Assembly (NCBI GenBank): GCA_977017645.1
Contig: OZ360252.1
Coordinates: 36,952,001-37,016,000, forward strand
Reading direction: 5' to 3'
Source of the DNA: Torpedo marmorata
Taxonomy: Eukaryota
Length of the DNA stretch: 64,000 nt
Both the position numbers and the translations under genes were made by a program. The notes under the pieces were generated by a model. It was not told the origin of the DNA. It did not search any database and was given only the letters and a program-made list of their open reading frames with translations. Shown one piece after another: positions 1 to 48,393 of the stretch. Every line of letters begins with the position of its first letter. Position 1 is the stretch's first letter.

Positions 1-3000
1 GGGGTTATTTACCCAGTGTCATGGTGCAGGGGGGTTATTTACCCAGTGTCATGGTGCAGGGGGGTTATTTACCCAGTGTCATGGTGCAGGGGGGTTATTT
101 ACCCGGTGTCATGGTGCAGGGGGGTTATTTACCCAGTGTCATGGTGCAGGGGGGTTATTTACCCGGTGTCATGGTGCAGGGGGTTATTTACCCAGTGTCG
201 TGGTGCAGGGGGATTATTTACCCAGTGTCATGGTGCAGGGGGGTTATTTACCCAGTGTCATGGTGCAGGGGGGTTATTTACCCGGTGTCATGGTGCAGGT
301 GGGTTATTTACCCAGTGTCATGGTGCAGGGGGGTTATTTACCCAGTGTCATGGTGCAGGGGGGTTATTTACCCGGTGTCGTGGTGCAGGGGGGTTATTTA
401 CCCAGTGTCATGGTGCAGGGGGGTTATTTACCCGGTGTCATGGTGCAGGGGGGTTATTTACCTGATGTTGTGGTGCAGGGGGGTTATTTACCCAGTGTCA
501 TGGTGCAGGGGGGGTTATTTACCCAGTGTCGTGGTGCAGGGGGGTTATTTACCCAGTGTCATGGTGCAGGGGGGTTATTTACCCAGTGTCATGGAGCAGG
601 GGGGTTATTTACCCGGTGTCATGGTGCAGGGGGGTTATTTACCCGGTGTCGTGGTGCAGGGGGGTTATTTACCCAGTGTCATGGTGCAGGGGGGTTATTT
701 ACCCAGTGTCATGGTGCAGGGGGGTTATTTACCCAGTGTCATGGTGCAGGGGGGTTATTTACCCGGTGTCGTGGTGCAGGGGGGTTATTTACCCGGTGTC
801 GTGGTGCAGGAGGGTTATTTACCCAGTGTCATGGTGCAGGGAGGTTATTTACCCGGTGTCATGGTGCAGGGGGGTTATTTACCCAGTGTCATGGTGCAGG
901 GGGGTTATTTACCCGGTGTCATGGTGCAGGGTGGTTATTTACCCAGTGTCATGGTGCAGGGGGGTTATTTACCTGGTGTCATGGTGCAGGGGGGTTATTT
1001 ACCCAGTGTCGTGGTGCAGGGGGGTTATTTACCCAGTGTCATGGTGCAGGGGGGTTATTTACCAAGTGTCATGGTGCAGGGGGGGTTATTTACCCAGTGT
1101 CGTGGTGCAGGGGGGTTATTTACCCAGTGTCATGGTGCAGGGGGGTTATTTACCCAGTGTCATGGTGCAGGGGGGTTATTTACCCAGTGTCATGGTGCAG
1201 GGGGGTTATTTACCCAGTGTCATGGTGCAGGGGTGTTATTTACCCAGTGTCATGGTGCAGGGGGGTTATTTACCCGGTGTCATGGTGCAGGGGGGTTATT
1301 TACCCAGTGTCATGGTGCAGGGGGGTTATTTACCCAGTGTCATGGTGCAGGGGGGTTATTTACCCGGTGTCATGGTGCAGGGGGGTTATTTACCCAGTGT
1401 CATGGTGCAGGGGGGTTATTTACCCGGTGTCATGGTGCAGGGGTGTTATTTACCCAGTGTCATGGTGCAGGGGGGTTATTTACCCAGTGTCATGGTGCAG
1501 GGGGGTTATTTACCCGGTGTCATGGTGCAGGGGGGTTATTTACCCAGTGTCATGGTGCAGGGGGGTTATTTACCCGGTGTCATGGTGCAGGGGGGTTATT
1601 TACCCAGTGTCGTGGTGCAGGGGGGTTATTTACCCAGTGTCATGGTGCAGGGGGGTTATTTACCCAGTGTCATGGTGCAGGGGGGTTATTTACCCAGTGT
1701 CATGGTGCAGGGGGGTTATATACCCAGTGTCATGGTGCAGGGGGGTTATTTACCCAGTGTCATGGTGCAGGGGGGTTATTTACCCAGTGTCATGGTGCAG
1801 GGGGTTTATTTACCCAGTGTCATGGTGCAGGGGTGTTATTTACCCAGTGTCATGGTGCAGGGGGGTTATTTACCCAGTGTCATGGTGCAGGGGGGTTATT
1901 TACCCAGTGTCATGGTGCAGGGGGTTTATTTACCCAGTGTCATGGTGCAGGGGGGTTATTTACCCAGTGTCATGGTGCAGGGGGGTTATCTACCCGGTGT
2001 CGTGGTGCAGAGGGGTTATTTACCCGGTGTCATGGTGCAGGGGGTTTATTTACCCAGTGTCATGGTGCAGGGGGGTAATTTACCCAGTGTCGTGGTGCAG
2101 GGGGGTAATTTACCCAGTGTCATGGTGCAGAGGGGTTATTTACCCAGTGTCATGGTGCAGGGGGGTTATTTACCCAGTGTCATGGTGCAGGGGGGTTATT
2201 TACCCAGTGTCGTGGTGCAGGGGGGTTATTTACCCAGTGTCATGGTGCAGGGGGGTTATTTACCCAGTGTCATGGTGCAGGGGGGTTATTTACCCAGTGT
2301 CATGGTGCAGGGGGGTTATTTACCCAGTGTCGTGGTGCAGGGGGGTTATTTACACAGTGTCATGGTGCAGGGGGGTTATTTACCCAGTGTCTTGGTGCAG
2401 GGGGGTTATTTACCCAGTGTCGTGGTGCAGGGGGGTTATTTACCCAGTGTCATGGTGCAGGGGGGTTATTTACCTGGTGTCACGGTGCAGGGGGGTTATT
2501 TACCCAGTGTCATGGTGCAGGGGGGTTATTTACCCGGTGTCATGGTGCAGGGGGGTTATTTACCCGGTGTCATGGTGCAGGGGGGTTATTTACCTGGTGT
2601 CACGGTGCAGGGGGGTTATTTACCCAATGTCATGGTGCAGGGGGGTTATTTACCCGGTGTCATGGTGCAGGGGGGTTATTTACCCGGTGTCATGGTGCAG
2701 GGGGGTTATTTACCCAGTGTCATGGTGCAGGGGGGTTATTTACCCAGTGTCACGGTGCAGGGGGGTTATTTACCCAGTGTCACGGTGCAGGGGGGTTATT
2801 TACCCAGTGTCGTGGTGCAGGGGGGTTATTTACCCAGTGTCATGGTGCAGGGGGGTTATTTACCCAGTGTCACGGTGCAGGGGGGTTATTTACCCGGTGT
2901 CATGGTGCAGGGGGGTTATTTACCCGGTGTCATCGTGCAGGGGGGTTATTTACCCGGTGTCATGGTGCAGGGGGGTTATTTACCCAGTGTCATGGTGCAG

Positions 3001-6000
3001 GGGGGTTATTTACCCGGTGTCATGGTGCAGGGGGGTTATTTACCCAGTGTCATGGTGCAGGGGGGTTATTTACCCAGTGTCATGGTGCAGGGGGGTTATT
3101 TACCCGGTGTCATGGTGCAGGTGGGTTATTTACCTGGTGTCATGGTGCAGGGGGGTTATTTACCCGGTGTCATGGTGCAGGGGGGTTATTTACCCAGTGT
3201 CATGGTGCAGGGGGGTTATTTACCCAGTGTCATGGTGCAGGGGGGTTATTTACCCGGTGTCATGGTGCAGGGGGGTTATTTACCCGGTGTCGTGGTGCAG
3301 GGGGGTTATTTACCCAGTGTCATGGTGCAGGGGGGTTATTTACCCAGTGTCATGGTGCAGGGGGGTTTATTTACCCAGTGTCACGGTGCAGGGGGGTTAT
3401 TTACCCGGTGTCATGGTGCAGGGGGGTTATTTACCCAGTGTCATGGTGCAGGGGGGGTTATTTACCCAGTGTCGTGGTGCAGGGGGGTTATTTACCCGGT
3501 GTCGTGGTGCAGGGGGGTTATTTACCCGGTGTCATGGTGCAGGGGGGTTATTTACCCAGTGTCATGGTGCAGGGGGGTTATTTACCCGGTGTCGTGGTGC
3601 AGGGGGGTTATTTACCCGGTGTCATGGTGCAGGGGGGTTATTTACCCAGTGTCATGGTGCAGGGGGGTTATTTACCCAGTGTCATGGTGCAGGGGGGTTA
3701 TTTACCCGGTGTCATGGTGCAGGGGGGTTATTTACCCAGTGTCATGGTGCAGGGGGGTTATTTACCCAGTGTCATGGTGCAGGGGTGTTATTTACCCAGT
3801 GTCATGGTGCAGGGGGGTTATTTACCCAGTGTCATGGTGCAGGGGGGTTATTTACCCGGTGTCATGGTGCAGGGGGGTTATTTACCCGGTGTCATGGTGC
3901 AGGGGGGTTATTTACCCGGTGTCATGGTGCAGGGGGGTTATTTACCCAGTGTCGTGGTGCAGGGGGGTTATTTACCCAGTGTCATGGTGCAGGGGGGTTA
4001 TATACCCAGTGTCATGGTGCAGGGGGGTTATTTACCCAGTGTCATGGTGCAGGGGGGTTATTTACCCAGTGTCATGGTGCAGGGGGTTTATTTACCCAGT
4101 GTCATGGTGCAGGGGTGTTATTTACCCAGTGTCATGGTGCAGGGGGGTTATTTACCCAGTGTCATGGTGCAGGGGGGTTATTTACCCAGTGTCATGGTGC
4201 AGGGGGTTTATTTACCCAGTGTCATGGTGCAGGGGGGTTATTTACCCAGTGTCATGGTGCAGGGGGGTTATCTACCCGGTGTCGTGGTGCAGAGGGGTTA
4301 TTTACCCGGTGTCATGGTGCAGGGCGTTTATTTACCCAGTGTCATGGTGCAGGGGGGTAATTTACCCAGTGTCGTGGTGCAGGGGGGTAATTTACCCAGT
4401 GTCATGGTGCAGGGGGGTTATTTACCCAGTGTCATGGTGCAGGGGGTTTATTTACCCAGTGTCATGGTGCAGGGGGGTTATTTACCCAGTGTCATGGTGC
4501 AGGGGGTTATTTACCCAGTGTCATGGTGCAGGGGGGTTATTTACCCAGTGTCATGGTGCAGGGGGGTTATTTACCCAGTGTCATGGTGCAGGGGGGTTAT
4601 TTACCCAGTGTCATGGTGCAGGGGGGTTATTTACCCAGTGTCATGGTGCAGGGGGTTTATTTACCCAGTGTCATGGTGCAGGGGGGTTATTTACCCAGTG
4701 TCATGGTGCAGGGGGGTTATTTACCCGGTGTCATGGTGCAGGGGGGTTATTTACCCAGTGTGATGGTGCAGGGGGGTTATTTACCCAGTGTCATGGTGCT
4801 GGGGGGGTTATTTACCCAGTGTCATGGTGCAGGGGAGTTATTTACCCAGTGTCATGGTGCAGGGGGGGTTATTTACCCAGTGTCATGGTGCAGGGGGGTT
4901 ATTTACCCGGTGTCATGGTGCAGTGGGGTTATTTACCCAGTGTCATGGTGCAGGGGGGGTTATTTACCCGGTGTCATGGTGCAGGGGGGGTTATTTACCC
5001 AGTGTCATGGTGCAGGGGGGTTATTTACCCAGTGTCATGGTGCAGGGGGGTTATTTACCCAGCGTCGTGGTGCAGGGGGGTTATTTACCCCGTGTCATGG
5101 TGCAGGGGGGTTATTTACCCAGTGTCACGGTGCAGGGGGGTTATTTACCCAGTGTCGTGGTGCAGGGGGGTTATTTACCCAGTGTCGTGGTGCAGGGGGG
5201 TTATTTACCCAGTGTCATGGTGCAGGGGGGTTATTTACCCAGGGCCGTGGTGCAGGGGGGTTATTTACCTGGTGTCGTGGTGCAGAGGGGTTATTTCCCC
5301 AGTGTCGTGGTGCAGGGGGGTTATTTACCCAGTGTCATGGTGCAGGGGGGTTATTTACCCAGTGTCGTGGTGCAGGGGGGTTATTTACCCAGTGTCATGG
5401 TGCAGGGGGGTTATTTACCCAGTGTCATGGTGCAGGGGGGTTATTTACCCAGTGTCATGGTGCAGGGGGGTTATTTACCCAGTGTCGTGGTGCAGGGGGG
5501 TTATTTACACAGTGTCATGGTGCAGGGGGGTTATTTACCCAGTGTCATGGTGCAGGGGGGTTATTTACCCAGTGTCGTGGTGCAGGGGGGTTATTTACCC
5601 AGTGTCATGGTGCAGGGGGGTTATTTACCTGGTGTCACGGTGCAGGGGGGTTATTTACCCAGTGTCATGGTGCAGGGGGGTTATTTACCCGGTGTCATGG
5701 TGCAGGGGGGTTATTTACCCGGTGTCATGGTGCAGGGGGGTTATTTACCTGGTGTCACGGTGCAGGGGGGTTATTTACCCAATGTCATGGTGCAGGGGGG
5801 TTATTTACCCGGTGTCATGGTGCAGGGGGGTTATTTACCCGGTGTCATGGTGCAGGGGGGTTATTTACCCAGTGTCATGGTGCAGGGGGGTTATTTACCC
5901 AGTGTCACGGTGCAGGGGGGTTATTTACCCAGTGTCACGGTGCAGGGGGGTTATTTACCCAGTGTCGTGGTGCAGGGGGGTTATTTACCCAGTGTCATGG

Positions 6001-9000
6001 TGCAGGGGGGTTATTTACCCAGTGTCACGGTGCAGGGGGGTTATTTACCCGGTGTCATGGTGCAGGGGGGTTATTTACCCGGTGTCATCGTGCAGGGGGG
6101 TTATTTACCCGGTGTCATGGTGCAGGGGGGTTATTTACCCAGTGTCATGGTGCAGGGGGGTTATTTACCCGGTGTCATGGTGCAGGGGGGTTATTTACCC
6201 AGTGTCATGGTGCAGGGGGGTTATTTACCCAGTGTCATGGTGCAGGGGGGTTATTTACCCGGTGTCATGGTGCAGGTGGGATATTTACCTGGTGTCATGG
6301 TGCAGGGGGGTTATTTACCCGGTGTCATGGTGCAGGGGGGTTATTTACCCAGTGTCATGGTGCAGGGGGGTTATTTACCCAGTGTCATGGTGCAGGGGGG
6401 TTATTTACCCGGTGTCATGGTGCAGGGGGGTTATTTACCCGGTGTCGTGGTGCAGGGGGGTTATTTACCCAGTGTCATGGTGCAGGGGGGTTATTTACCC
6501 AGTGTCATGGTGCAGGGGGGTTTATTTACCCAGTGTCACGGTGCAGGGGGGTTATTTACCCGGTGTCATGGTGCAGGGGGGTTATTTACCCAGTGTCATG
6601 GTGCAGGGGGGGTTATTTACCCAGTGTCGTGGTGCAGGGGGGTTATTTACCCGGTGTCGTGGTGCAGGGGGGTTATTTACCCGGTGTCATGGTGCAGGGG
6701 GGTTATTTACCCAGTGTCATGGTGCAGGGGGGTTATTTACCCGGTGTCGTGGTGCAGGGGGGTTATTTACCCAGTGTCATGGTGCAGGGGGGTTATTTAC
6801 CCAGTGTCATGGTGCAGGGGGGTTATTTACCCGGTGTCGTGGTGCAGGGAGGTTATTTACCCGGTGTTGCGGTGCAGGGGGGTTATTTACCCAGTGTCAT
6901 GGTGCAGGGAGGTTATTTACCCGGTGTTGCGGTGCAGGGGGGTTATTTACCCGGTGTCATGGTGCAGGGGGGTTATTTACCCAGTGTCATGGTGCAGGGG
7001 GTTTATTTACCCAGTGTCATGGTGCAGGGGGGTTATTTACCCAGTGTCATGGTGCAGGGGGGTTATTTACCCAGTGTCATGGTGCAGGGGGGGTTATTTA
7101 CCTGGTGTCATGGTGCAGGGGGGTTATTTACCTGGTGTCATGGTGCAGGGGGGTTATTTACCCAGTGTCATGGTGCAGGGGGGGTTATTTACCTGGTGTC
7201 ATGGTGCAGGGGGGTTATTTACCTGGTGTCATGGTGCAGGGGGGTTATTTACCCGGTGTCGTGGTGCAGGGGGGTTATTTACCCGGTGTCATGGTGCAGG
7301 GGGGTTATTTACCCGGTGTCATGGTGCAGGGGGGTTATTTACCCAGTGTCATGGTGCAGGGGGGTTATTTACCCAGTGTCATGGTGCAGGGGGGTTATTT
7401 ACCCAGTGTCATGGTGCAGGGGGGTTATTTACCCAGTGTCATGGTGCAGGGGGGTTATTTACCCAGTGTCATGGTGCAGGGGGGTTATTTACCCAGTGTC
7501 ATGTTGCAGGGGGGTTATTTACCTGGTGTCATGGTGCAGGGGGGTTATTTACCCGGTGTCATGGTGCAGGGGGGTTATTTACCCGGTGTCATGGTGCAGG
7601 GGGGTTATTTACCCGGTGTCATGGTGCAGGGGGGTTATTTACCCGGTGTCATGGTGCAGGGGGGTTATTTACCCAGTGTCATGGTGCAGTGGGGTTATTT
7701 ACCCAGTGTCATGGTGCAGGGGGGTTATTTACCTGGTGTCATGGTGCAGGGGGGTTATTTACCCGGTGTCATGGTGCAGGGGGGTTATTTACCTGGTGTC
7801 ATGGTGCAGGGGGGTTATTTACCCAGTGTCATGGTGCAGGGGGGTTATTTACCCAGTGTCGTGGTGCAGGGGGGTTATTTACCCAGTGTCGTGGTGCAGG
7901 GGGGTTATTTACCTGGTGTCATGGTGCAGGGGGGTTATTTACCCAGTGTCATGGTGCAGGGGGGTTATTTACCCGGTGTCATGGTGCAGGGGGGTTATTT
8001 ACCCGGTGTCATGGTGCAGGGGGGTTATTTACCCGGTGTCATGGTGCAGGGGGGTTATTTACCCAGTGTCATGGTGCAGTGGGGTTATTTACCCAGTGTC
8101 ATGGTGCAGGGGGGTTATTTACCTGGTGTCATGGTGCAGGGGGGTTATTTACCCGGTGTCATGGTGCAGGGGGGTTATTTACCCAGTGTCATGGTGCAGG
8201 GGGGTTATTTACCCAGTGTCGTGGTGCAGGGGGGTTATTTACCCATTGTCATGGCGCAGGGGGTTTATTTACCCAGTGTCGTGGTGCAGGGGGGTTATTT
8301 ACACGGTGTCATGGTGCAGGGGGGTTATTTACCTGGTGTCATGGTGCAGGGGGTTTATTTACCCAGTGTCATGGTGCATGGGGGTTATTTACCCGGTGTC
8401 ATGGTGCAGGGGGGTTATTTACCCGGTATCGTGGTGCAGGGGGGTTATTTACCCCGTGTCATGGTGCAGGGGGGTTATTTACCCAGTGTCATAGTGCAGG
8501 GGGGTTTTTTACCCAGTGTCATGGTGCAGGGGGGTTATTTACCCGGTGTCATGGTGCAGGGGGGTTATTTACCCAGTGTCATGGTGCAGGGGGGTTATTT
8601 ACCCAGTGTCGTGGTGCAGGGGGGTTATTTACCCGGTGTCATGGTGCAGGGGGGTTATTTACCCAGTGTCATGGTGCAGGGGGGTTATTTACCCGGTGTC
8701 ATGGTGCAGGGGGGTTATTTACCCAGTGTCATGGTGCAGGGGGGTTATTTACCCGGTGTCATGGTGCAGGGGGGTTATTTACCCAGTGTCATGGTGCAGG
8801 GGGGTTATTTACCCAGTGTCATGGTGCAGGGGGGTTATTTACCCAGTGTCGTGGTGCAGGGGGTTTATTTACCCGGTGTCATGGTGCAGGGGGGTTATTT
8901 ACCCGGTGTCATGGTGCAGGGGGGTTATTTACCCAGTGTCATGGTGCAGGGGGGTTATTTACCCGGTGTCATGGTGCAGGGGGGTTATTTACCCAGTGTC

Positions 9001-10574
9001 ATGGTGCAGGGGGGTTATTTACCCAGTGTCATGGTGCAGGGGGGTTATTTACCCGGTGTCATGGTGCAGGGGGGTTATTTACCCAGTGTCATGGTGCAGG
9101 GGGGTTATTTACCCGGTGTCATGGTGCAGGGGGGTTATTTACCCAGTGTCACGGTGCAGGGGGGTTATTTACCCGGTGTCACGGTGCAGGGGGGTTATTT
9201 ACCCAGTGTCATGGTGCAGGGGGGTTATTTACCCGGTGTCATGGTGCTGGGGGGTTATTTACCCGGTGTCATGGTGCAGGGGGGTTATTTACCCGGTGTC
9301 ATGGTGCAGGGGGGTTATTTACCCAGTGTCATGGTGCAGGGGGGTTATTTACACAGTGTCGTGGTGCAGGGGGTTTATTTACCCAGTGTCATGGTGCAGG
9401 GGGGTTATTTACCCAGTGTCATGGTGCAGGGGGTTATTTACCCAGTGTCATGGTGCAGGGGGTTATTTACCCAGTGTCGTGGTGCAGGGGGGTTATTTAC
9501 CCGGTGTCATGGTGCAGGGGGGTTATTTACCCAGTGTCGTGGTGCAGGGGGGTTATTTACCCAGTGTCGTGGTGCAGGGGGGTTATTTACCCAGTGTCGT
9601 GGTGCAGGGGGGTTATTTACCTGGTGTCATGGTGCAGGTGGGTTATTTACCCAGTGTCGTGGTGCAGGGGGGTTATTTACCCAGTGTCATGGTGCAGGTG
9701 GGTTATTTACCCAGTGTCATGGTGCAGGGGGGTTATTTACCCAGTGTCATGGTGCAGGGGGGGTTATTTACCCGGTGTCATGGTGCAGGGGGGTTATTTA
9801 CCCAGTGTCATGGTGCAGGGGGGTTATTTACCCAGTGTCACGGTGCAGGGGGGTTATTTACCCAGTGTCATGTTGCAGGGAGGTTATTTACCCGGTGTCA
9901 TGGTGCAGGGGGGTTATTTACCTGGTGTCATGGTGCTGGGGGGTTATTTACCCAGTGTCATGGTGCAGGGGGGTTATTTACCCAGTGTCATGGTGCAGGG
10001 GGGTTATTTACCTGGTGTCGTGGTGCAGGGGGGTTATTTACCCAGTGTCATGGTGCAGGGGGGTTATTTACCCGGCGTCGTGGTACAGGGGGGTTATTTA
10101 CCCGGCGTCGTGGTGCGGTGCAGGTTATTTACCTGGTGTCGTGGTGCAGGGGGGTTATTTCCCCAGTGTCATGGTGCAGGGGGGTTATTTACCCAGTGTC
10201 ATGGTGCAGGGGGGTTATTTACCCAGTGTCATGGTGCAGGGGGGTTATTTACCCGGTGACATGGTGCAGGGGGGTTATTTACCCGGTGTCATGGTGCAGG
10301 GGGGTTATTTACCCAGTGTCACGGTGCAGTGGGGTTATTTACCCAGTGTCGTGGTGCAGGGGGTTATTTACCCAGTGTCATGGTGCAGGGGGGTATTTAC
10401 CCGGTGTCGCGATACGGGGGGTTATTTACCCGGTGTCACAGTGCGGGGGATTAATTACCCGGTGTCGAAGTGCAGGGTGGGTTATTTACCCGGTGTCGCG
10501 ATACGGGGGGTTATTTACCCGGTGTCGAAGTGCAGGGTGGGTTATTTACCCGGTGTCGAAGTGCAGGGCTGGTT
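1..10574 (+). repeat. Homogeneous 30-bp tandem satellite, consensus GGGGGGTTATTTACCCAGTGTCATGGTGCA (~350 monomers by length/30); continues beyond the left window edge
   Basis: 30-bp periodicity is directly visible. Variation is mostly CCAG/CCGG/CTGG, CATG/CGTG/CACG and +/-1 G in the G-run. The last ~6 monomers (10390-10574) are of the diverged type. Confidence 0.99.
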
Positions 10575-12360
10575 TTTTTCCCAATCTTTTTTATTGATTT
10601 TTATAAGAAATACAATACAATGAAGAAAAGGGAACAAAATTGAAAATACAATATCACATATGTATATATATTAAAATAAAACTTCAAACAGTATAAATTC
10701 GATCCCCCCTCCACTGCAATAGGTGACAATGGAAAAAAAATCAGAAGTATTATATACATATAAAAAAACCCACTTAACCTACTCTAATAAAAAAAAAACA
10801 ACTAACAAAAAACAGCTGAGCAGCTTATCCTGAAGGTTATATATATTTTGTAAATTTTGGTTCCTACCGTAAATCAAAAAACAAAGGAAGGGTAAATACA
10901 TCTAATCACATTAGAAACACTTACATCATATGAAAATAAGACATAAAAGGTCGCCATGTATCTTCAAATTTCACCCATGAATCAAATACATGATATCTAA
11001 TTTTTTCTAAGCTGAAACAAGACATAATATGAGAAAACCATTGAAACACTGTTGGAGGTCGAGAGTCTTTCCATTTGAATTGGACGACTCTTCTGGCCAA
11101 CAATGTAGAGAAGGCCACAACCCGTTGAACAGGTACAGAAAAAACTCCCCATGTCTGGGTCAATAACCCCGAAAAGAGCAGTTATTGGATTGGGTCGTAG
11201 CTCCACCTGGAGTATAGTTGAAAAGATATCAAAAATTTATTTCCAATAGTTTTCTAAGGATGAACAAGACCAAAACATATGTGTCAATGTAGCAATCTCA
11301 GATTTGCATCTGTCACAAATAGGGTTAATATTAGAAAAAAATACTAGCCAATTTATCTTTGGACATGTGATCACGATGTACCACTTTGAATTGGATTAAT
11401 GAATGTCGGGCACATACAGAAGATGTATTTACCAATTTAAAAATCTTGTCCCATAGATCCTCAGATAAGGGTCTTGCAAGATCCAGTTCCCAAGCCTTTT
11501 TAATCTTATCATGAAGTACTGGACGTAATTTTAATAATCTATCATATATAATTCCAATTAATCCTTTCTGAGAAGGATTAAATTGAAAAATATTATCAAC
11601 TAAATCTGGTGGATATATAAATGGAAAATCCCGTAATATGATATTTAAGATATTTCTAATCTGTAAATGTTTTTAAAAAATGAGTATTTGTTAAGTCATA
11701 TTTACTTGCAAGCTGTTCAAAAAACATTAAACAACCTTCCTTCAATAAATTTGCAAAAGAAACAATACCTTTGATTTTCCATATAGAGAAAAATTGATCC
11801 ATTATTGATGGTTGAAAAAAATGGTTATGAGAGATAGCACTAGATAAGACAAAGTTTTTTAAATTAAAAAATGTCCTAAATTGGAACCAGATTTGTAATG
11901 TATGTTTGAGTATTGGATTAGATATATTCCTACTGATCTTGGAAAAGCTAAATGGAAGAGAGGCACCCAATAAAGAGGCCACTGAATACTGCTGTATAGA
12001 TTTCAATTCTAAATCTGTCCATAATGGACGATCCAATTTATCAGAATAAAAAATCCAAAAAGTTAGATAGCGAATATTAGCAGCCCAATAATAAAATCTA
12101 AAATTAGGTAAGGCCATACCTCCATCTTTTTTCAATTTTTGTCAATGAAATTTACTAATTCTCAGGTTTTTGTCCTTCCAAGTAAAGGAAGAAACTTTTA
12201 ACTCAATTTTATTAAAAAAAGATTTTGGAATGAAAACTGGAATTTCTAGAAATAAATATAAAAACTTAGGTAATATTATCATTTTAACTGCACTAATACG
12301 ACCTATTAAAGATAACGATAAAGGAGACCATCTAGAAAAAGACAATCTCACATACTGGAA
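10575..12360 (-). mobile_element. 5'-truncated, frameshifted LINE-1 (L1 clade) inserted in the satellite
   Basis: AT-rich island. Minus-strand ORF fragments are L1 ORF2 C-terminus: RWSPLSLSLIGRISAVKM..PKFLYLF, KDGGMALPNFRFYYWAA, the zinc knuckle CDRCKSEIATLTHMFWSC (~11265-11320) and LEKIRY..TWRPF with a stop at 10921. A 3'UTR with AATAAA (~10589-10595) and a short A-tail at ~10575 follows. Confidence 0.93.
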
Positions 12361-12398
12361 TATTTACCCGGTGTCGTGGTGCGGGGTGGGTTATTTAC

Positions 12399-13542
12399 AC
12401 CGCGACACCAGGTAAATAACCCACTCCGCAACGCAACACCGGGTAAATAATCCCCCGCAACGCAACACCGGGTAAATAATCCCCCGCAACGCAACACCGG
12501 GTAAATAACCACCCGCACTGCGATACTGGGTAAATATCCCCCCACTTTGCGACACTGGGTAAATAACCCCCTGCACCGCGACACCGGGTAAATAACCCCC
12601 CGCATCGCGACACCGGGTAAATAACCCCCCGCATTGCGACACCGGGTAAATAACCCACCCGCACAACGACACCGGGTAAATAACCCACAGCCGCACAACG
12701 ACACCAGGTAAATAACCCTCCCGTACTGTGACACCGGGTAAATAACCCCCCTGCACTACGACACCGGGCAAATAACCCGCCCCGCGACACCGTGTAAATA
12801 ACCATCCCTCACCGGGACACCGGGTAAATAACCCACCTCGCACCGCAACACTGGGTAAATAACCCTCCCGTACTGTGACACCGGGTAAATAACCTCCCGC
12901 ACCGCAACAACGGGTAAATAACCCCCCACCGCACCGCGACACCAGGTAAATAACCCCCTGCACCGTGACAACGGGTAAATAACCCCCCACCGCACCGGGA
13001 CACCAGGTAAATAACCCCCCGCACCGAAAACTGGGTAAATAACCCCCGCCGCACCGTGACACCCGATAAATAACCCCCTACACCGTGACACCGGGTAAAT
13101 AACCCACCACGCACCGCGACACCGGTTAAATAACCCCACGCACTGCGTCACTGGGTAAGTAACCCGTCCCGCACCACAATACCGGGTAAATAACCCCTGC
13201 ACCATGACACCGGGTAAATAACCTCCCGCACTGCGACACTGGGTAAATAACCCCCGCACTGTGACATGGGTAAATAACCAACACTGCACGCGACGCTGGG
13301 TAAATAACCCATCATGACACTGGGTAAATAACCCCCCCGCACCCTGACACCGGGTAAATAATCACCCCGCACCCTGACACCGGGTAAAGAACCCCCGCAC
13401 CGCGACACTGGGTAAATAACCCCTGCACCGCATCACCAGGTAAATAACCCCCGCACCGCGACACTGGGTAAATAACCCCCGCACTGCATCACTCGGTAAA
13501 TAACCCACTCTGCACGCTACACTGGGTAAATAACTCCCCGCA
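12399..13542 (-). repeat. Inverted block of the same satellite (~38 diverged monomers)
   Basis: Monomers read CACCGCGACACCGGGTAAATAACCC on the plus strand, the reverse complement of the flanking array. It is preceded by ~1.3 forward monomers (12361-12398). Confidence 0.97.
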
Positions 13543-40500: not shown

Positions 40501-43500
40501 CGTGGTGCGGGGTGTTATTTACCCGGTGTCATGCTGCGGGGAGGTTATTTACCCGGTATCACAGTGCGGGGGGGTTATTTACCTGGTGTTGCGGTGCAGG
40601 GGGTTCATTACCCGGTGTCGCGGTGTTGGGAGGTTATTTACCCGGTGTTGAGGTGCGGGGCGGGTATTTACCCAGTGACGCGGTGCGGGGGGCTATTTAC
40701 CCGGTGTCGCGGTGCGGGTGGGTTGTTTATCCAGTGTGGGGGGTTATTTACCCGGTGTCGTGGTGCGGGGTGGGTTATTTACCCGGTGTTGCGGTGCGGG
40801 GGGCTATTTACCTGGTGTCGTGGTGCGGGTGGGTTATTTACCCAGTGTTGCGGTCCGGGGGGCTATTAACCTGGTGTCGTGGTGTTGGGCGAGTATTTAC
40901 CCAGTGTCGTGGTGCTGGTGGGTTATTTACCCAGTGTTGCGGTGAGAGTGGGTTATTTACCCGGTGTCGCGGTGAGGGTTGGTTATTTACCCAGTGTCGC
41001 GGTGCAGGGGCGTTATTTACCCAATGTCGCGGTACGGGTGGGTTATTTACCTGGTGTCGCTGTGCAGGGGCGTTATTTACCCAATGTCGCGGTGCGGGGA
41101 GTGTTTACCCGGTGTCGTGGTGCGGGGGTTATTTACCCAGTGTCGCGATGCGGGGGCATTATTTACCCAGTTTGCTGATGCAGGGTTTTTTTTACCAGAT
41201 GTCGTGGTGCAGGGGGGTTATTTACCCGGTAGGCGGTGCGGTGGGTTTATTTATCCGGTGTCGTGGTGCGGTGGGGTTACTTATCTGGTGTCATGGTGCG
41301 GGGTGTTATTTACCTGGTGACACGGTGCCGTGTGGTTATTTATCCAGTGTCGTGGTGCGTGTGGTTATTTACCCGTTGTCGCGGTGCGGTGGGGTTATTT
41401 ATCCGGTGCCGCGGTGCGGTGGGGTTATTTATCTGGTGTCGTGGTGTGGGGTGTTATTTACCCGGTGTCACGGTGCGTTGGGGTTATTTACCTGGTGTCG
41501 CAGTGCGGGGAGGTTATTTATCCGGTGTCGTGATGCAGGGAAGTTATTTACCCGGTGTCGCGGTGGGGGGATTTATTTATCAGGTGTCGCGGTGCGGGGT
41601 GGGTATTTACCAGGTGTCGCCGTGCGGGTGGGTTATTTCCGAGGTGTTGTGGTGCGGGGTGGATTATTTACCCAGTGTCACGGTGTGGGGTGGGTTATTT
41701 ATCCGGTATTGTGGTGCGGTGAGGTTATTTATCGGTGTCACGGTGCGGGGGGTTATTTACTGGGTGTCATGTTGGGGGGATTTATTTATCTGGTGTCGTG
41801 GTGCGGGGTGGGTTATTTACCAAGTGTCACGGTGTGGGGTGGGCTATTTACCCGGTGTCGTGGTGCGGGTGGGTTATTTACCCAGTGTCGCGGTGAGGAT
41901 GGGTTATTTACCCAGTGTTGCAGTGAGGGTGGATTATTTACCCAGTGTCGCAGTGAGGGTGGGTTATTTACCCAGTGTCGTGGTGCGGGTGGGTTATTTA
42001 CCCAGTGTCGCGGTGAGGATGGGTTATTTACCCAGTGTTGCAGTGAGGGTGGGTTATTTACCCAGTGTCGTGGTGTGGGTGGGTTATTTACGCGGTGTCA
42101 CGGTGTTGGGTGGGTTATTTACACGGTGTCGCTGTGCAGGGGCGTTATTTACCCGGTGTTGCGGTGCGGGGGGGGTATTTACCCAGTGTTGCTGAGCGGG
42201 GGAGTTATTTACCCAATATCACGGTGCGGGGGATGTTTACCCGATGTCGTGGAGCGGGGGTGGGTTATTTAACTGTTTTCGCGGTGCAAGGGGGTATTTA
42301 ACCGGTGTTGCAGTGTGGGGGCATTTACCAGATGACGCGGTACGGGGGTTATTTACCAGGTGTCGCGATGCGGGTGCATTATTTACCCAGTTTGCTCTTG
42401 CAGGGTTTTTTTTTACCGGATGACGTGGTGTAGGGGGGTTATTTACCCGGTACGCGGTGCGGTGGGGTTATTTATCCGGTGTCGTGGTGCGGGGAGGTTA
42501 TTTACCCGGTGTCGCGGTGCGGGGGGTTATTTACCCACTGTCGCGGTGAGGGGGGGTATTTACCCGGTGTTGCGGTGCGGGGAGGTTATTTATCCGGTGT
42601 CGTAGTGCGGGTAGGTTATTTACCCAGTGTCGCGGTGGGGGGGGGGGTATTTACCCGGTGTTGCTGTGCGGGGGGCTATTTACCTGGTGTCGAGGAGCGG
42701 GTGGGTTATTTACCCAGTGTCGCAGTGAGGGTGGGTTATTTACGCAGTGTCACGGTGTTGGGTGGGTTACTTACCCGGTGTCGCTGTGCAGAGGCGTTAT
42801 TTATCCGGTTTTGCGGTGCGGGGGGTGTGTACCCAGTGTCGTGGAGCTGGGGTGGGTTATTTATCTGTTTTCGCGGTGCAAGGGGTTATTTAACCGGTGT
42901 TGCAGTGCAGGGGTATTTACCCGATGTCGCGGTGCGGGGGGTTATTGACCCGGTGTCGCGGTGGGGGGATTTATTTACGCGGTGTTGTGGTATCCGGTGT
43001 CATGGTGCGGGGTGTTATTTACGCGGTGCCGTGGTGCGGGGTGGGTTATTTATCAGGTGTCGTGGTGCGGGTGGGTTATTTACGTGGTGTTCTGGGGTGG
43101 GGTGGGTTATTTACCCAGTGTCACTGTGTGGGGTGGGTTATTTACCCGGTGTTGTGATGTGGCGGGCTATTTACCCGGTGTCGTGGAGCGGTTGGGTTAT
43201 TTACGCGGTGTCACGGTGTTGGGTGGGTTACGTACCCGGTGTCGCTGTGCAGGGGCGTTATTTACCCGGTGTTGCGGTGCGGTTGGTATTTACCCAGTGT
43301 CGCTGTGCAGGGGCGTTATTTACCCAGTGTTGCGGTGCGGGGGGTAATTACCCAGTGTCGCTGTGCGGGGGAGTTATTTACCCAGTGTCGTGGTGCGGGG
43401 GCTGTTTACCCAGTGTCACGGAGCGGGGTTGATTATTTAACTTTTCGCATTGCAAGGGGGTATTTAACCAGTGTTGCAGTGCGGGGGTATTTACCCAATG

Positions 43501-46500
43501 TCACGGTGCCGGGGTTATTTATCCGGTATAACGGTGTGGGGGGGTGGGTGTTTACCCAGTGTCGCTGTGCGGGGGAGTTATATACCCGGTGTTGGGGTGC
43601 AAGGTGGGTATTTACCTATGTCGCTGTGCGGGTGGGTTATTTATGCGGTGTTGCGGTGCAGAGTGGGTTATTTACACGGTGTTGCGGTGCGGGTGGGTTA
43701 TTTACCCGGTGTCGCGGTGTGGGGTGGGTTATTTATCCGGTATTGTGGTGCGGTGAGGTTATTTATCGGTGTCGCGGTGCGGGGGGTTATTTACTGGGTG
43801 TCATGTTGGGGGGATTTATTTATCTGGTGTCGTGGTGCGGGGTGGGTTATTTACCCAGTGTCACGGTGTGGGGTGGGCTATTTACCCGGTGTCGTGGTGC
43901 GGGTGGGTTATTTACCCAGTGTCGCGGTGAGGATGGGTTATTTACCCAGTGTTGCAGTGAGGGTGGATTATTTACCCAGTGTCGCAGTGAGGGTGGGTTA
44001 TTTACCCAGTGTCGTGGTGCGGGTGGGTTATTTACCCAGTGTCGCGGTGAGGATGGGTTATTTACCCAGTGTTGCAGTGAGGGTGGGTTATTTACCCAGT
44101 GTCGTGGTGTGGGTGGGTTATTTACGCGGTGTCACGGTGTTGGGTGGGTTATTTACACGGTGTCGCTGTGCAGGGGCGTTATTTACCCGGTGTTGCGGTG
44201 CGGGGGGGGTATTTACCCAGTGTTGCTGAGCGGGGGAGTTATTTACCCAATATCACGGTGCGGGGGATGTTTACCCGGTGTCGTGGAGCGGGGGTGGGTT
44301 ATTTAACTGTTTTCGCGGTGCAAGGGGGTATTTAACCGGTGTTGCAGTGTGGGGGCATTTACCAGATGACGCGGTACGGGGGTTATTTACCAGGTGTCGC
44401 GATGCGGGTGCATTATTTACCCAGTTTGCTCTTGCAGGGTTTTTTTCTACCAGATGACGTGGTGTAGGGGGGTTATTTACCCGGTACGCGGTGCGGTGGG
44501 GTTATTTATCCGGTGTCGTGGTGCGGGGAGGTTATTTACCCGGTGTCGCGGTGCGGGGGGTTATTTACCCACTGTCGCGGTGAGGGGGGGGTATTTACCC
44601 GGTGTTGCGGTGCGGGGAGGTTATTTATCCGGTGTCGTAGTGCGGGTAGGTTATTTACCCAGTGTCGCGGTGGGGGGGGGTATTTACCCGGTGTTGCTGT
44701 GCGGGGGGCTATTTACCTGGTGTCGAGGAGCGGGTGGGTTATTTACCCAGTGTCGCAGTGAGGGTGGGTTATTTACGCAGTGTCACGGTGTTGGGTGGGT
44801 TACTTACCCGGTGTCGCTGTGCAGAGGCGTTATTTATCCGGTTTTGCGGTGCGGGGGGTGTGTACCCAGTGTCGTGGAGCTGGGGTGGGTTATTTATCTG
44901 TTTTCGCGGTGCAAGGGGTTATTTAACCGGTGTTGCAGTGCAGGGGTATTTACCCGATGTCGCGGTGCGGGGGGTTATTGACCCGGTGTTGCGGTGGGGG
45001 GATTTATTTACGCGGTGTTGTGGTATCCGGTGTCATGGTGCGGGGTGTTATTTACGCGGTGCCGTGGTGCGGGGTGGGTTATTTATCAGGTGTCGTGGTG
45101 CGGGTGGGTTATTTACGTGGTGTTCTGGGGTGGGGTGGGTTATTTACCCAGTGTCACTGTGTGGGGTGGGTTATTTACCCGGTGTTGTGATGTGGCGGGC
45201 TATTTACCCGGTGTCGTGGAGCGGTTGGGTTATTTACGCGGTGTCACGGTGTTGGGTGGGTTACGTACCCGGTGTCGCTGTGCAGGGGCGTTATTTACCC
45301 AGTGTTGCGGTGCGGGGGGTAATTACCCAGTGTCGCTGTGCGGGGGAGTTATTTACCCAGTGTCGTGGTGCGGGGGCTGTTTACCCAGTGTCACGGAGCG
45401 GGGTTGATTATTTAACTTTTCGCAGTGCAAGGGGGTATTTAACCAGTGTTGCAGTGCGGGGGTATTTACCCAATGTCACGGTGCCGGAGTTATTTATCCG
45501 GTATAACGGTGTGGGGGGGTGGGTGTTTACCCAGTGTCGCTGTGCGGGGGAGTTATATACCCGGTGTTGAGGTGCAGGGTGGGTATTTACCTATGTCGCT
45601 GTGCGGGTGGGTTATTTATGCGGTGTTGCGGTGCAGAGTGGGTTATTTACACGGTGTTGCGGTGCGGGTGGGTTATTTACCCGGTGTCGCGGTGTGGGTG
45701 GGTTATTTACCTGGTGTCGTGGTGCGGGTGGGTTATTTACACGGTGTCCGGTGTTGGGTGGGTTATTTACCCGGTGTCGCAGTGCGGGGTGGGTTATTTA
45801 CCCGGTACGCGGTGCGGTGGGGTTATTTATCCGGTGTCATGGTGCGGGATGTTATTTACCCGGTGCGGTGGGGTTATTTATCTGGTGTCGTGGTGTGGGG
45901 TGTTATTTACCCAGTGTTGCGGTGCGGTGGGGTTATTTATCCGGTTTCGCGGTGCGGTGGAGTTATTTATCCGCTGTCGTGGTGCGGTGGGGTTATTTAT
46001 CCGGTGTCATGGTGTGGGGTGTTATTTACCCGGTGTCGTTGTGCGGGGAGGTTATTTACCCAGTGTCGCAGTGCGGTGGGTTATTTACCCAGTGTCGCAG
46101 TGCAGTGGGTTATTTACCCGGTGTCACGGAGCGGGTGGGTTATTTATCCGGTGTTGCGGTGCAGTGGGGTTATTTACCCACTGTCGCGGTGCGGGGAGGT
46201 TATTTATCCGGTGTCGTGGTGCGGGGAGGTTATTTACCCGGTGTTGCGGTGGTGGGATTTATTTATCCGGTGTCGCGGTGCGGGATGGGTTATTTACCAG
46301 GTGTCGTGGTGCGGGTGGGTTATTTATGCGGTGTCGTGGTGCGGGGTGGGTTATTTACCCAGTGTCACGGTGTGGGGTGGGTTATTTACCCGGTGTCATG
46401 GTGCGGGGTGGTTATTTACCGGTGTCGCAGTGCGGGGGGTTATTTACCCGGTGTCGCGGTGGGGAGATTTATTTATCTGGTGTGGTGCGGGGTGGGTTAT

Positions 46501-48393
46501 TTACCCAGTGTCGCGGTGTGGGGTGGGCTATTTCCTCGGTGTCGCGGTGCGGGTGGGTTATTTACACGGTGTCCGGTGTTGGGTGGGTTATTTGCCTGGT
46601 GTCGCTGTGCGGGGAGTTATTTACCCGGTGGTGCGGTGGGGTTATTTATCCGGTGTCGCGGTGCGGTGGGGTTATTTATCTGGTGTCATGGTGCGGGGTG
46701 TTATTTACCCGTTGTTGCGGTGCGGGGGTATTATTTACCCGGTGTCGCGGTGCGGGGAGGTTATTTATCCGGTGTCGTGGTGCGGGGAGGTTATTTAACC
46801 GGTGTCACAGTGGGGGGATTTATTTATCCGATGTCGCGGTGCAGGATGGGTTATTTACCAGGTGTCGCGGTGCGGGGAGGTTATTTACCGGTGTTGCGGT
46901 GCGGGGGTTATTTACCCGGTGTCGCGGTGGGGGGATTTATTTATCTGGTGTTGTGGTGCGGGTGGGTTATTTACCCAGTGTAATGGTGTGGGGTGAGCTA
47001 TTTACCCGGTGTCGCGGTTCGGGTGAGTTATTTACCCGGTGTCCGATGTTGGGTGGGTTATTTACCTGGTGTCGCTGTGCGGGGGATTATTTACCCGGTG
47101 TCGCGGTGCTGTGTGAGTTATTTACCCTGTGTCGCTGTGCGGGGGAGTTATTTAACCTGTGTCATGGTGCAGGGGGGTTATTTACCCGGTGTCTTGGTGA
47201 GGGGGGGTTATTTACCCGGTGTTGCAGTGCGGGGGGTTATTTTCCTGGTGTCATGGTGCAGGTTGGGTTATTTACGTGGTGAAGGGGGGTTATTTACCTG
47301 GTGTTGAGGTGCGGGGCGGGTATTTACCCAGTGTCGCGGTGCGGGTGGGTTATTTACCCAGTGTCGCGGTGCGGGGGGTTATTTACCCAGTGTCGCGGTG
47401 CGGGGTGGGTTATTTACCCGGTGTTGCGGTGCGGGGGTTATTGACCTGTTGCCGTGGTGTGGGTGGGTTATTTACGCAGTGTCGCAGTGCGGGTGGGTTA
47501 TTTACCTGGTGTCGTGGTGCGGGGTAGGTTATTTACCCGGTGGCGCGGTGCAGCGAGGTTGTTTACCTGGTGTCGTGGTGAGAGTGGGTTATTTACCCGG
47601 TGTCGCGGTGCGGGTCGGTTATTTACCCGGTGTCGCGGTGCGGGGGGGTTATTTACCCGTTGTCGCGGTGTGGTGGGTTATTTACCCGGTGTGGTGGGTT
47701 ATTTACCCAGTGTCGCAGTGTGGGGGGTGGGTTATTTATGCGGTGTCACGGTGTTGGGTGGGTTACTTACCTGGTGTCGTGCGGAGGGTTATTTACCCGT
47801 TGTCGCGGTGTGGTGGGTTATTTACCCGGTGTCGCGGTGTGGTAGGTTATTTACCCGGTGTCGCGGTGTGGTGGGTTATTTACCCAGTGTCGCGGTGTGG
47901 TGGGTTATTTAACCAGTGTCGCGGTGTGGAGGGTTATTTACCCGGTGTCGCGGTGTGGTGGGTTATTTACCCGGTGTCGCGGTGTGGTGGGTTATTTACC
48001 CAGTGTCGCGGTGTGGTAGGTTATTTACCCGGTGTCGCGGTGTGGTGGGTTATTTAACCAGTGTCGCGGTGTGGAGGGTTATTTACCCGGTGTCGCGGTG
48101 TGGTGGGTTATTTACCCAGTGTCGCGGTGTGGTGTGTTATTTACCCAGTGTCGCGGTGTGGTGGGTGGGTTATTTATGCGGTGTCATGGTGTTGGGTGGG
48201 TTACTTACCTGGTGTCGTGCGGAGGGTTATTTACCCGTTGTCGCGGTGTGGTGGGTTATTTACCCGGTGTCGCGGTGTGGGGGGTGGGTTATTTATGCGG
48301 TGTCACGGTGTTGGGTGGGTTACTTACCTGGTGTCGTGGTGCGGAGGGTTATTTACCCAGTGTTACGGTATGGGGGGTGGGTTATTTACCCGG
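13543..48393 (+). repeat. Diverged 29-31-bp satellite (consensus ~GGGTGGGTTATTTACCCGGTGTCGCGGTGC), CpG-rich, with higher-order and segmental duplications (~1,150 monomers by length/30)
   Basis: The GGTTATTTACCC core recurs every ~30 bp, with recurrent ordered variant monomers. The array ends abruptly near 48393. Confidence 0.98.

Follow-up and report, generated by a model that had tools for sequence, protein, structure and literature searches.

A CpG-poor young block beside a CpG-rich diverged block of the same 30-base tandem repeat in Torpedo marmorata

Change of CG into TG or CA is the signature of 5-methylcytosine deamination. In the usual course of methyl-CpG decay, old copies lose CpG relative to a CpG-rich young consensus. 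GC-rich minisatellites are composed of 10-100 bp units with a G-rich strand, and a few common variant units are interspersed along them. Layered expansion has been described for satellites (Shepelev 2009, Altemose 2022, as presented in PMC13431155), with a young homogeneous layer, diverged older units at its edges and turnover by unequal crossover and conversion. In medaka, the centromeric satellites are divided into sub-domains of distinct sequence, some hypomethylated and others hypermethylated (PMC5705604, PMC13431155), and the word deamination is absent from the main text of both papers. In the cattle X neocentromere, near-identical repeats with low CpG and an excess of TpG were attributed to earlier methylation and deamination (PMC12663436).

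The window analysed here, a stretch of 64,000 nucleotides of contig OZ360252.1 with positions counted from its first base, contains part of a 30-base tandem repeat which forms one locus of ~125 kb with ~3,900 units. It resembles GC-rich minisatellites in unit size, G-rich strand, shuffled variant units and location in a field of other minisatellites, but its length is far beyond that of a typical minisatellite allele. Methyl-CpG decay is recognized in the change of CG to both CA and TG, on both strands, at ~12 times the background as measured here on LINE copies. The usual outcome of this decay is seen in a neighbouring 26-mer array, whereas in the 30-bp array it was the decayed states that became amplified, which left the young block poor in CpG. 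The young homogeneous layer, the diverged older edge units and the turnover by unequal crossover and conversion are shared with the layered satellites described in PMC13431155. Unlike those, the array has a 30-bp unit, is restricted to one 125-kb locus and carries the old block mostly on one side, with an L1 fragment and an inversion at the boundary. The cattle neocentromere (PMC12663436) is megabase-scale, TE-derived and accompanied by CENP-A and methylation data, whereas the present locus is a short-unit array with its CpG-rich parent adjacent. As in the medaka satellites, sub-arrays of one family differ in sequence and this may relate to methylation; the medaka methylation differences were measured, while the contrast between the blocks here is one of sequence.

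The array is composed of two main blocks of one family, one homogeneous and one diverged, arranged head to tail. Block A is the homogeneous one. Its right end occupies 1-10,400 on the + strand, with 30-bp units of the majority form TTATTTAC-CCA-GTGT-CATG-GTG-CAG-GGGGG, and it reaches 76.6 kb upstream of the window, to window -76,601 (contig position 36,875,399). It comprises ~2,677 units in total and is broken up by a junction duplicate at -17,150 to -10,500. Block B (13,541-48,393, + strand) comprises 1,124 diverged units of 28-32 bp, the consensus of which has four CpGs. Non-CpG divergence from the common core is 0.76% in A against 7.8% in B, with CpG observed/expected ratios of 0.28 and 1.20, respectively. 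The first-pass annotation had treated 1-48,393 as one array. The array is not continuous over this range, as an L1-type fragment (10,570-12,360, - strand) and ~1.15 kb of inverted, diverged B-type units (12,400-13,540, - strand; 39 reverse-strand units in the 12,001-16,000 bin) separate the blocks. On the A side of the LINE lie six diverged, CpG-bearing, B-like relic units (10,401-10,570, + strand).

The boundary element is the 3' fragment of an L1-type LINE, containing the C-terminal part of ORF2, as recognized by tblastn to a neighbouring ORF2 and by copy number; a Pfam scan of three frames of the fragment named no domain. Its other genomic copies are 92-97% identical, and it departs from the majority of 25 copies at 44 of 1710 non-CpG columns. 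A second copy 27.5 kb upstream differs from it by 3 mismatches and one gap. In block B, the unit at 16,657-16,685 (+ strand) has the A consensus (CATG type) in its centre. The left half of this unit recurs at window -10,509, where it is fused with the right half of an A unit, and this chimera is the breakpoint of a 27-kb duplication.

The proposals that the two consensus sequences differ at CpG sites and that polymorphism is concentrated there were both confirmed. In the 25-nt core, A and B differ solely at four CpG sites, with an identical majority base at the remaining 17 positions. Among 347 A units at 1-10,400, the majority states at sites 1-4 are CA (221), CA (285), TG (324) and CA (342). 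CG is the majority or plurality at every site among 1110 B units of 14,000-48,400 (557, 672, 536 and 606). In the window, 238 of 271 departures from the A consensus (88%) fall on the eight CpG-site bases. The opposition of four-CpG and CpG-free monomers is true of the consensus units but not of the typical ones. Just 105 of 1124 B units possess all four CpGs; the mean number kept is 2.13 and the modal state is two (405 units). Only 68 B units are CpG-free, and nine have all four sites deaminated with no other core change. In A, zero CpG was found in just 1294 of 2677 units and about half still carry one, CG being retained in 34.5%, 22%, 5.4% and 0.1% of units at sites 1 to 4. The site 1 alleles in A are CA (1546), CG (924) and TG (176), and those of sites 2-3 are CATG (1883), CGTG (567), CACG (133), TGTG (19) and TGCG (12). 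Both CA and TG occur at ancestral CG sites, at all four in B and at sites 1 and 2 in A, where the two decay products are found together on the A background with A-type spacers. CGCG is missing from A though CACG and TGCG occur; from a two-CpG founder these need back-mutation or import from B.

Polarity was assigned from measured loss and gain rates and from edge relics instead of a monomer tree, because the two consensus cores match everywhere but at the CpG sites and the genome offers no outgroup. In the LINE copies of the genome, CpG loss (11.9%) is 19 times commoner per direction than CpG gain (28 of 4440 cells), in agreement with the suggested direction from CpG-rich to CA/TG; we strongly infer that the four-CpG unit is ancestral. 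That A is younger than B was likewise borne out by the B-like units which flank A on the LINE side and by a CG-bearing remnant at its far left edge. These older units at the edges of the young block, along with a relic patch at -65.5 kb, are asymmetrically placed. The CCG+CGTG type is found in the leftmost A unit and in the diverged relic patch (-65,513 to -64,900). Private variants are present in 17.1% of 222 CCG+CGTG units against 10.2% of 1127 CCA+CATG units (p 0.005), although this and the other p-values are optimistic because units are non-independent. In the oldest A units two CpGs remain, as they do most commonly in B.

Layered growth by unequal exchange, in which the young block lost its CpGs through methylcytosine deamination and drift and the CpG-free unit was not favoured, is given a probability of about 0.68. 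The L1 fragment would have been inserted into B-type sequence, and block A would have been seeded to its left by a unit in a state typical of B, CCG..CGTG..CAG, with about two CpGs left. Both of these may have been deaminated at an early stage of the expansion, giving the CCA, CTG, CATG and TGTG alleles, which could then have drifted to 58-76% and become mixed among units. The near-identity of its units would keep the turnover of A faster than that of B, which would duplicate only as kb-scale blocks. Signs of unequal exchange are present as 13 duplicate alignments and the chimeric B/A unit. The earlier idea that an already erased unit had expanded was not sustained, as the A alleles indicate a founder that still had about two CpGs, which decayed during expansion. 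In LINE copies, CpG hypermutability is 11.9-12.6-fold (bootstrap 9.1-15.3). With CpGs mutating ~12 times faster than other sites in this genome, most differences between a young consensus and an older one should fall on CpGs. With the LINE ratio, the chance that the first four fixations are all CpG deaminations is 0.09-0.13, and that the first two both are is 0.44-0.52; B's own decay ratio of 5.4-6.3 lowers the four-in-a-row chance to only 0.014-0.036. Further observations that run against layered growth with drift are the scarcity of CpG-free B units, the consistently CpG-poorer state of younger A layers, the missing CGCG in A and, among neighbouring arrays, the shortness of the homogeneous CpG-rich ones beside the CpG poverty of the largest.

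Escape from methylation, which the first-pass annotation had suggested as a possible cause, was not supported by the CpG content of duplicated units or by an unrelated array; the CpG loss in A is likely ordinary repeat turnover. Over 407 pairs in A, duplicated units carry a mean of 0.60 CpG, where the block mean is 0.62; over 408 pairs in B both means are 2.13. Recent kb-scale duplications are thus unbiased with respect to CpG in A as in B. The kb-scale tandem duplicates of B differ by 0-1.3% outside CpG, as seen on the + strand in 26,347-28,415 to 28,473-30,546 and in 41,695-43,668 to 43,729-45,643. B is old as units, yet not inert, since it is still duplicating with its CpGs. A locally homogeneous CpG-rich patch at 47,666-48,250 (+ strand; the eight units from 47,818 average 2.6 CpG) is a unit-scale amplification without CpG loss. 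The unrelated array has a 26-bp unit and lies 260 kb away. CG is kept in 50 of 57 units at its homogeneous end and in 206 of 471 units of its diverged part, and its trend between homogeneity and CpG is opposite to that of A (rho -0.84, 11 bins). Within A, CpG per unit rises with bin divergence (rho 0.41, p 0.002, 53 bins), which leans toward the earlier suggestion.

A CpG-loss ratchet could produce the same layers. Each deamination would remove a methylation target and ease the silencing of recombination, and CpG-poorer units would out-expand the others in serial takeover, leaving 4, then 2, then 0.6 CpG per unit as three steps side by side at the locus. The layers do run one way, and no non-CpG core variant in A is above ~0.8% while the CA alleles stand at 58% and 76%. 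A review reports that loss of DNMT3A/3B raises sister-chromatid recombination at mouse centromeres (PMC10813616). The large neighbouring arrays are also CpG-poor: a 28-mer of 110 kb and a 49-mer of at least 200 kb, the largest neighbours, have observed/expected ratios of 0.18-0.20. In the stretches examined, neither of them has a CpG-rich layer for comparison. The ratchet is nevertheless considered unlikely. The unbiased kb-scale duplications of both blocks speak against it, and A units with a rare marker in common with a nearby unit are richer in CpG, not poorer (0.98 in 63 units against 0.63 in 236, p 0.002, partly due to the relic patch). The relation between homogeneity and CpG is absent in B (rho -0.05, 140 bins) and reversed in the 26-mer, and the case concerns one locus only. 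Deamination products at the CpGs of A further indicate that these CpGs were methylated. If true, the ratchet would be a causal link of DNA methylation, mutation and satellite succession, and would explain why the longest nearby arrays have a CpG-free consensus while short ones kept CpG. The locus is convenient for testing it, as parent and daughter blocks are adjacent with a dated LINE at the boundary.

A reversed role of methylation, compatible with layered growth by drift, is judged equally improbable as an explanation. Here B would be a 35-kb CpG-island-like block, partly methylated in the germ line, which kept its CpGs, and the fully methylated A lineage would have lost them fast. B has a GC content of 55.6% and its CpG ratio of 1.20 exceeds the 0.20-0.43 of surrounding stretches. 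Its decay ratio (6.3 overall; 5.4 in recent duplicates, 3.1-9.3) lies below the LINE ratio at matched base composition (11.9, 9.1-15.3), and 60% of its CG/CA/TG cells are still CG against 38% expected. However, these intervals just touch, and the ratio of B is lowered by subfamily variants and by conversion among diverged units, both of which inflate its non-CpG rate. The presence of CA and TG at each of the four B sites means that B has been methylated, and in the LINE copy within the array 4 of 20 CpGs are deaminated, as in other copies.

A CpG-free founder, with the CG alleles of A acquired later by conversion from B or by back-mutation, is very improbable. Exchange between A and B did occur, as the chimeric unit shows, a single step leads from CATG to CGTG or to CACG, and A has no CGCG. 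Against this, the tetranucleotide CGCG, commonest in B (341 of 1124 units), and the site-4 CG (614 of 1124) are found in 0 and 4 of 2677 A units, and the non-CpG variants of B were not brought along. Gain of CG at two control TG sites is 0.2-0.3% (5 and 7 of 2677), CTG at site 1 requires a CG parent, and divergence is higher among the CG-bearing A units. That sequencing or assembly errors produced the CG/CA mixture or the repeated junction is conceivable, as the array is long and near-identical, the assembly comprises 4,566 contigs and a gap of 100 N lies 7 kb to the left of the array. It is nonetheless highly improbable: five A duplicates repeat the variants faithfully (87-98% of units identical between copies), 3 sites and one gap distinguish the two LINE copies, and no comparable toggling is seen in B, where CpGs are far more numerous.

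The neighbourhood contains 27 arrays in 739 kb. All eight arrays which match at 90% or above nearby have CpG in the consensus, five of them with an observed/expected ratio of at least 0.6, and the homogeneous CpG-rich arrays which serve as controls span just 1-3 kb. The suggested check on CpG poverty in homogeneous arrays of this family elsewhere has no replicate, as the 30-bp family is single-locus: no second locus was found genome-wide in an assembly which may be incomplete, and genome counts (2572+16 and 1746+46) equal those inside 264 kb at the locus. A centromeric satellite occurs on many chromosomes or as a dominant array; this family occupies a single locus, and unrelated arrays of comparable or larger size are present on the contig.

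The locus is a natural record in which deamination products are amplified by repeat turnover, and the young layer can be the CpG-poor one. This reverses the usual dating rule and calls for caution in dating repeats by CpG content; it is not a new mechanism. A limited literature search on CpG depletion or deamination in repeat arrays along with amplification gave no matching paper, though the idea may already be published.

A coding VNTR was rejected: the lack of stop triplets in the unit is the sole reason why every frame of the + strand is open, and 20 of 346 spacings in 1-10,400 are of 29 or 31 bp, shifting the frame. A regular higher-order repeat in B was also rejected, since offsets vary by place (1.3, 1.8, 2.0, 2.1 and 5.3 kb). 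No canonical G-quadruplex motif with loops up to 7 was found in A or B. In the flanks, a Pfam scan of 121 of 652 candidate frames of at least 70 codons gave no match that clearly marked a host exon, though short exons would be missed by it. The matches in these 121 frames were to domains of mobile-element type.

TRF resolved window positions 1-48,393 as a single 30-bp array. Extending the window by 180 kb on the upstream and 20 kb on the downstream side gave a 264-kb stretch, in which the full array runs from window position -76,601 (negative positions lie upstream) to 48,393, about 125 kb. A 100-N assembly gap is situated 7 kb beyond its left end, at contig position 36,868,409 (window -83,591). 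Two pattern counts across the whole 6.2-Gb assembly, whose LINE content and low CpG background suggest a vertebrate, (2572+16 and 1746+46) equalled the local counts within the 264 kb, and the family is therefore confined to one locus in this assembly. The array is composed of 59 kb of homogeneous, CpG-poor units (block A), a junction, a further 21 kb of block A ending at 10,400, a second junction and 35 kb of diverged units with four CpGs in their consensus (block B). The upstream junction copy contains six B-like units, an L1-type LINE fragment, inverted units and 3.4 kb of B. A plus-strand run of 3,385 stop-free codons at 466-10,623 is unremarkable, as stop triplets are lacking from the unit on that strand, and units of 29 or 31 bp shift the frame.

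A 25-nt core served as anchor for the units, with CG, CA or TG accepted at each of four CpG sites, giving 2,677 units in A and 1,124 in B. The majority base is common to both blocks at all 17 non-CpG core positions, where per-site deviation from it is 0.76% in A and 7.8% in B. Sites 1-4 are mostly CA, CA, TG and CA in A and mostly CG in B, and in the part of A inside the window the eight CpG-site bases account for 238 of the 271 departures from the A consensus. The first-pass annotation had described the homogeneous unit as CpG-erased; this consensus pattern is real, but A itself is not erased, as 1,383 of its 2,677 units keep at least one CpG (34.5%, 22.0%, 5.4% and 0.1% of units at sites 1-4). 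B units retain a mean of 2.13 of the four CpGs; all four are kept in 105 of 1,124, none in 68 and at most one in 303, and both decay products, CA and TG, occur at every site. B (13,541-48,393, 35 kb) has a CpG-island composition, with 55.6% GC and a CpG o/e of 1.20. Runs of six or more G number 28.8 per kb in A (1-10,385) and 4.7 in B (13,560-48,393), so the spacer too changed or was homogenised.

The CpG-rich state is supported as ancestral. Among 24 LINE copies, CA or TG replaced CG in 11.9% of cells per direction, against 28 of 4,440 cells with CG in place of TG or CA, a 19-fold asymmetry per site which makes four CpG gains far less likely than four losses. Along with both decay products in B, CpG-bearing relics at the edges support this polarity: B-like units flank the LINE on its A-facing side, and at the left extremity of the array the first A unit is preceded by a remnant that carries CG. 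The LINE fragment diverges at 44 of 1710 columns (2.6%), and the copies of the junction duplication differ by 3 mismatches in ~1,760 bases. On rough clocks resting on different sequence types, the order of events would be B units (7.8%), LINE insertion (2.6%), A expansion (0.76%) and junction duplication.

Site 1 in A carries CA in 1546 units, CG in 924 and TG in 176, while sites 2-3 carry CATG in 1883, CGTG in 567, CACG in 133, TGTG in 19, TGCG in 12 and CGCG in none. A CG parent within A is required for both TGTG and site-1 TG. CG gain at two never-CpG TG positions was observed in 5 and 7 of 2,677 units. Private variants occur in 17.1% of 222 CCG+CGTG units versus 10.2% of 1,127 doubly decayed units (p 0.005). 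The leftmost A unit is of the CCG+CGTG type, a diverged patch at -65,513 to -64,900 consists mostly of such units, and the modal B state has two CpGs (405 of 1,124). A CpG-free founder of A is improbable on these allele counts; the CG alleles, CG-derived alleles and diverged CCG+CGTG units within A go against the earlier proposal that the erased unit founded the expansion. The simplest history is a two-CpG founder, in which three deaminations would have risen to high frequency with one back-transition or import (CACG), and it accounts incompletely for missing CGCG alongside CACG and TGCG. Site 1 and sites 2-3 show almost no departure from linkage equilibrium beyond a slight excess of both founder-like combinations (p 0.003). 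The 407 duplicated unit pairs in A yielded 19 differences of CG versus CA/TG. Of these, 18 are switches between the two common alleles, a pattern suggesting that alleles were shuffled among units and did not arise by fresh deamination.

The young layer was most probably depleted of CpGs through methyl-CpG decay whose products repeat turnover then captured, a reading to which we give about two chances in three. In the LINE benchmark, CpG decay per dinucleotide was 12.6 times the per-site background (115/482 vs 901/41,525 cells), or 11.9 times once base composition was matched (9.1-15.3 on bootstrapping 20 columns). For a lineage to begin with four fixations that are without exception CpG deaminations, the probability is 0.09-0.13 with the LINE ratio and 0.014-0.036 with B's own decay ratio of 5.4-6.3. 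For a pattern picked post hoc at one locus, the four-of-four change is suggestive at most. B decays at about half the LINE benchmark rate, and together with its o/e and GC content this softly points to B as the under-methylated germ-line block, if there is any, the inverse of the suggested escape of A from silencing; however, subfamily variants and conversion raise B's background and make its decay estimate soft.

A directional ratchet, where CpG-poorer units out-expand CpG-richer ones as methylation targets are lost, appears unlikely. Thirteen duplicate alignments were detected, and six B pairs showing over three differences were dropped. Duplicated units carry 0.60 CpG in A (block mean 0.62) and 2.13 in B (block mean 2.13). 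Non-CpG differences number 13 in 6,919 sites in A duplicates and only 32 in 6,936 in B duplicates, so B amplification is ongoing, CpGs included. CpG content is 0.98 in A units whose rare marker recurs in a nearby unit (n=63) against 0.63 in solitary ones (n=236), a difference to which the diverged relic patch at -65,513 to -64,900 partly contributes. In B, CpG content does not track local homogeneity (rho -0.05 over 140 bins); of the ten patches with the highest homogeneity, several carry 2.4-3.5 CpG per unit. Counter to these duplicate, marker and patch results, CpG rises with divergence in 50-unit bins of A (rho 0.41, p 0.002). In the junction duplication (-17,884 to -10,538 vs 9,673 to 16,628) the B part is colinear over 105 units and the A part over 24, and markers from the right-hand A block find their counterparts in the left block, at a distance of 49-72 kb, and not at the junction-duplicate position; rearrangement is apparently much more rapid in A than in B. 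The breakpoint of the 27-kb duplication (window -10,509 and 16,657) lies within a B unit that agrees with the A consensus at its centre; it directly records unequal exchange between A and B.

For controls, TRF was run over 739 kb of this contig, which is not a random sample, and gave 27 other arrays. All eight arrays with at least 90% match, each 1-3 kb, carry a consensus CpG, and five have o/e of at least 0.6. An 18.7-kb array of 26-bp units (contig 36,597,072-36,615,759) is CpG-rich at its homogeneous end (CG in 50 of 57 units) and CpG-decayed over its diverged part (206 of 471, with CA/TG replacing); this is the usual direction, opposite to that of the A/B array. The two largest neighbours have a CpG-free consensus and o/e near 0.2, as expected under long-term decay and under the ratchet alike: a 110-kb array of 28-bp units (contig 37,109,468-37,224,499; 44- and 66-kb blocks in opposite orientation with a 5-kb spacer between), and a 49-bp satellite occupying at least the contig's last 200 kb (42,903,651-43,103,649; o/e 0.20, ~9% local heterogeneity).

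In published accounts, layered satellite expansion is described (PMC13431155), a CpG-poor, TpG-rich repeat domain of the cattle X centromere is ascribed to past methylation (PMC12663436), medaka satellites form hypo- and hypermethylated sub-domains with distinct sequences (PMC5705604), and methylation is reviewed as restraining recombination in centromeric repeats (PMC10813616). A CpG-depleted young satellite layer found no match in the literature covered, which is weak evidence at such limited coverage. The first-pass annotation was right in pattern and polarity and wrong in emphasis.

The LINE fragment in the array has many genomic copies, 92-97% identical. Another L1-type element, an uninterrupted ORF2 of 1,272 codons with endonuclease and reverse-transcriptase domains, is situated on the minus strand at 54,909-58,724. 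The fragment matches its residues 796-1265 at 26-36% protein identity with no blastn match, and the ORF2 is, on these comparisons, of a distinct family. A Tc1/mariner-type transposase remnant lies on the minus strand at 61,191-62,236, with HTH_Tnp_Tc3_2 and DDE_3 in separate frames.
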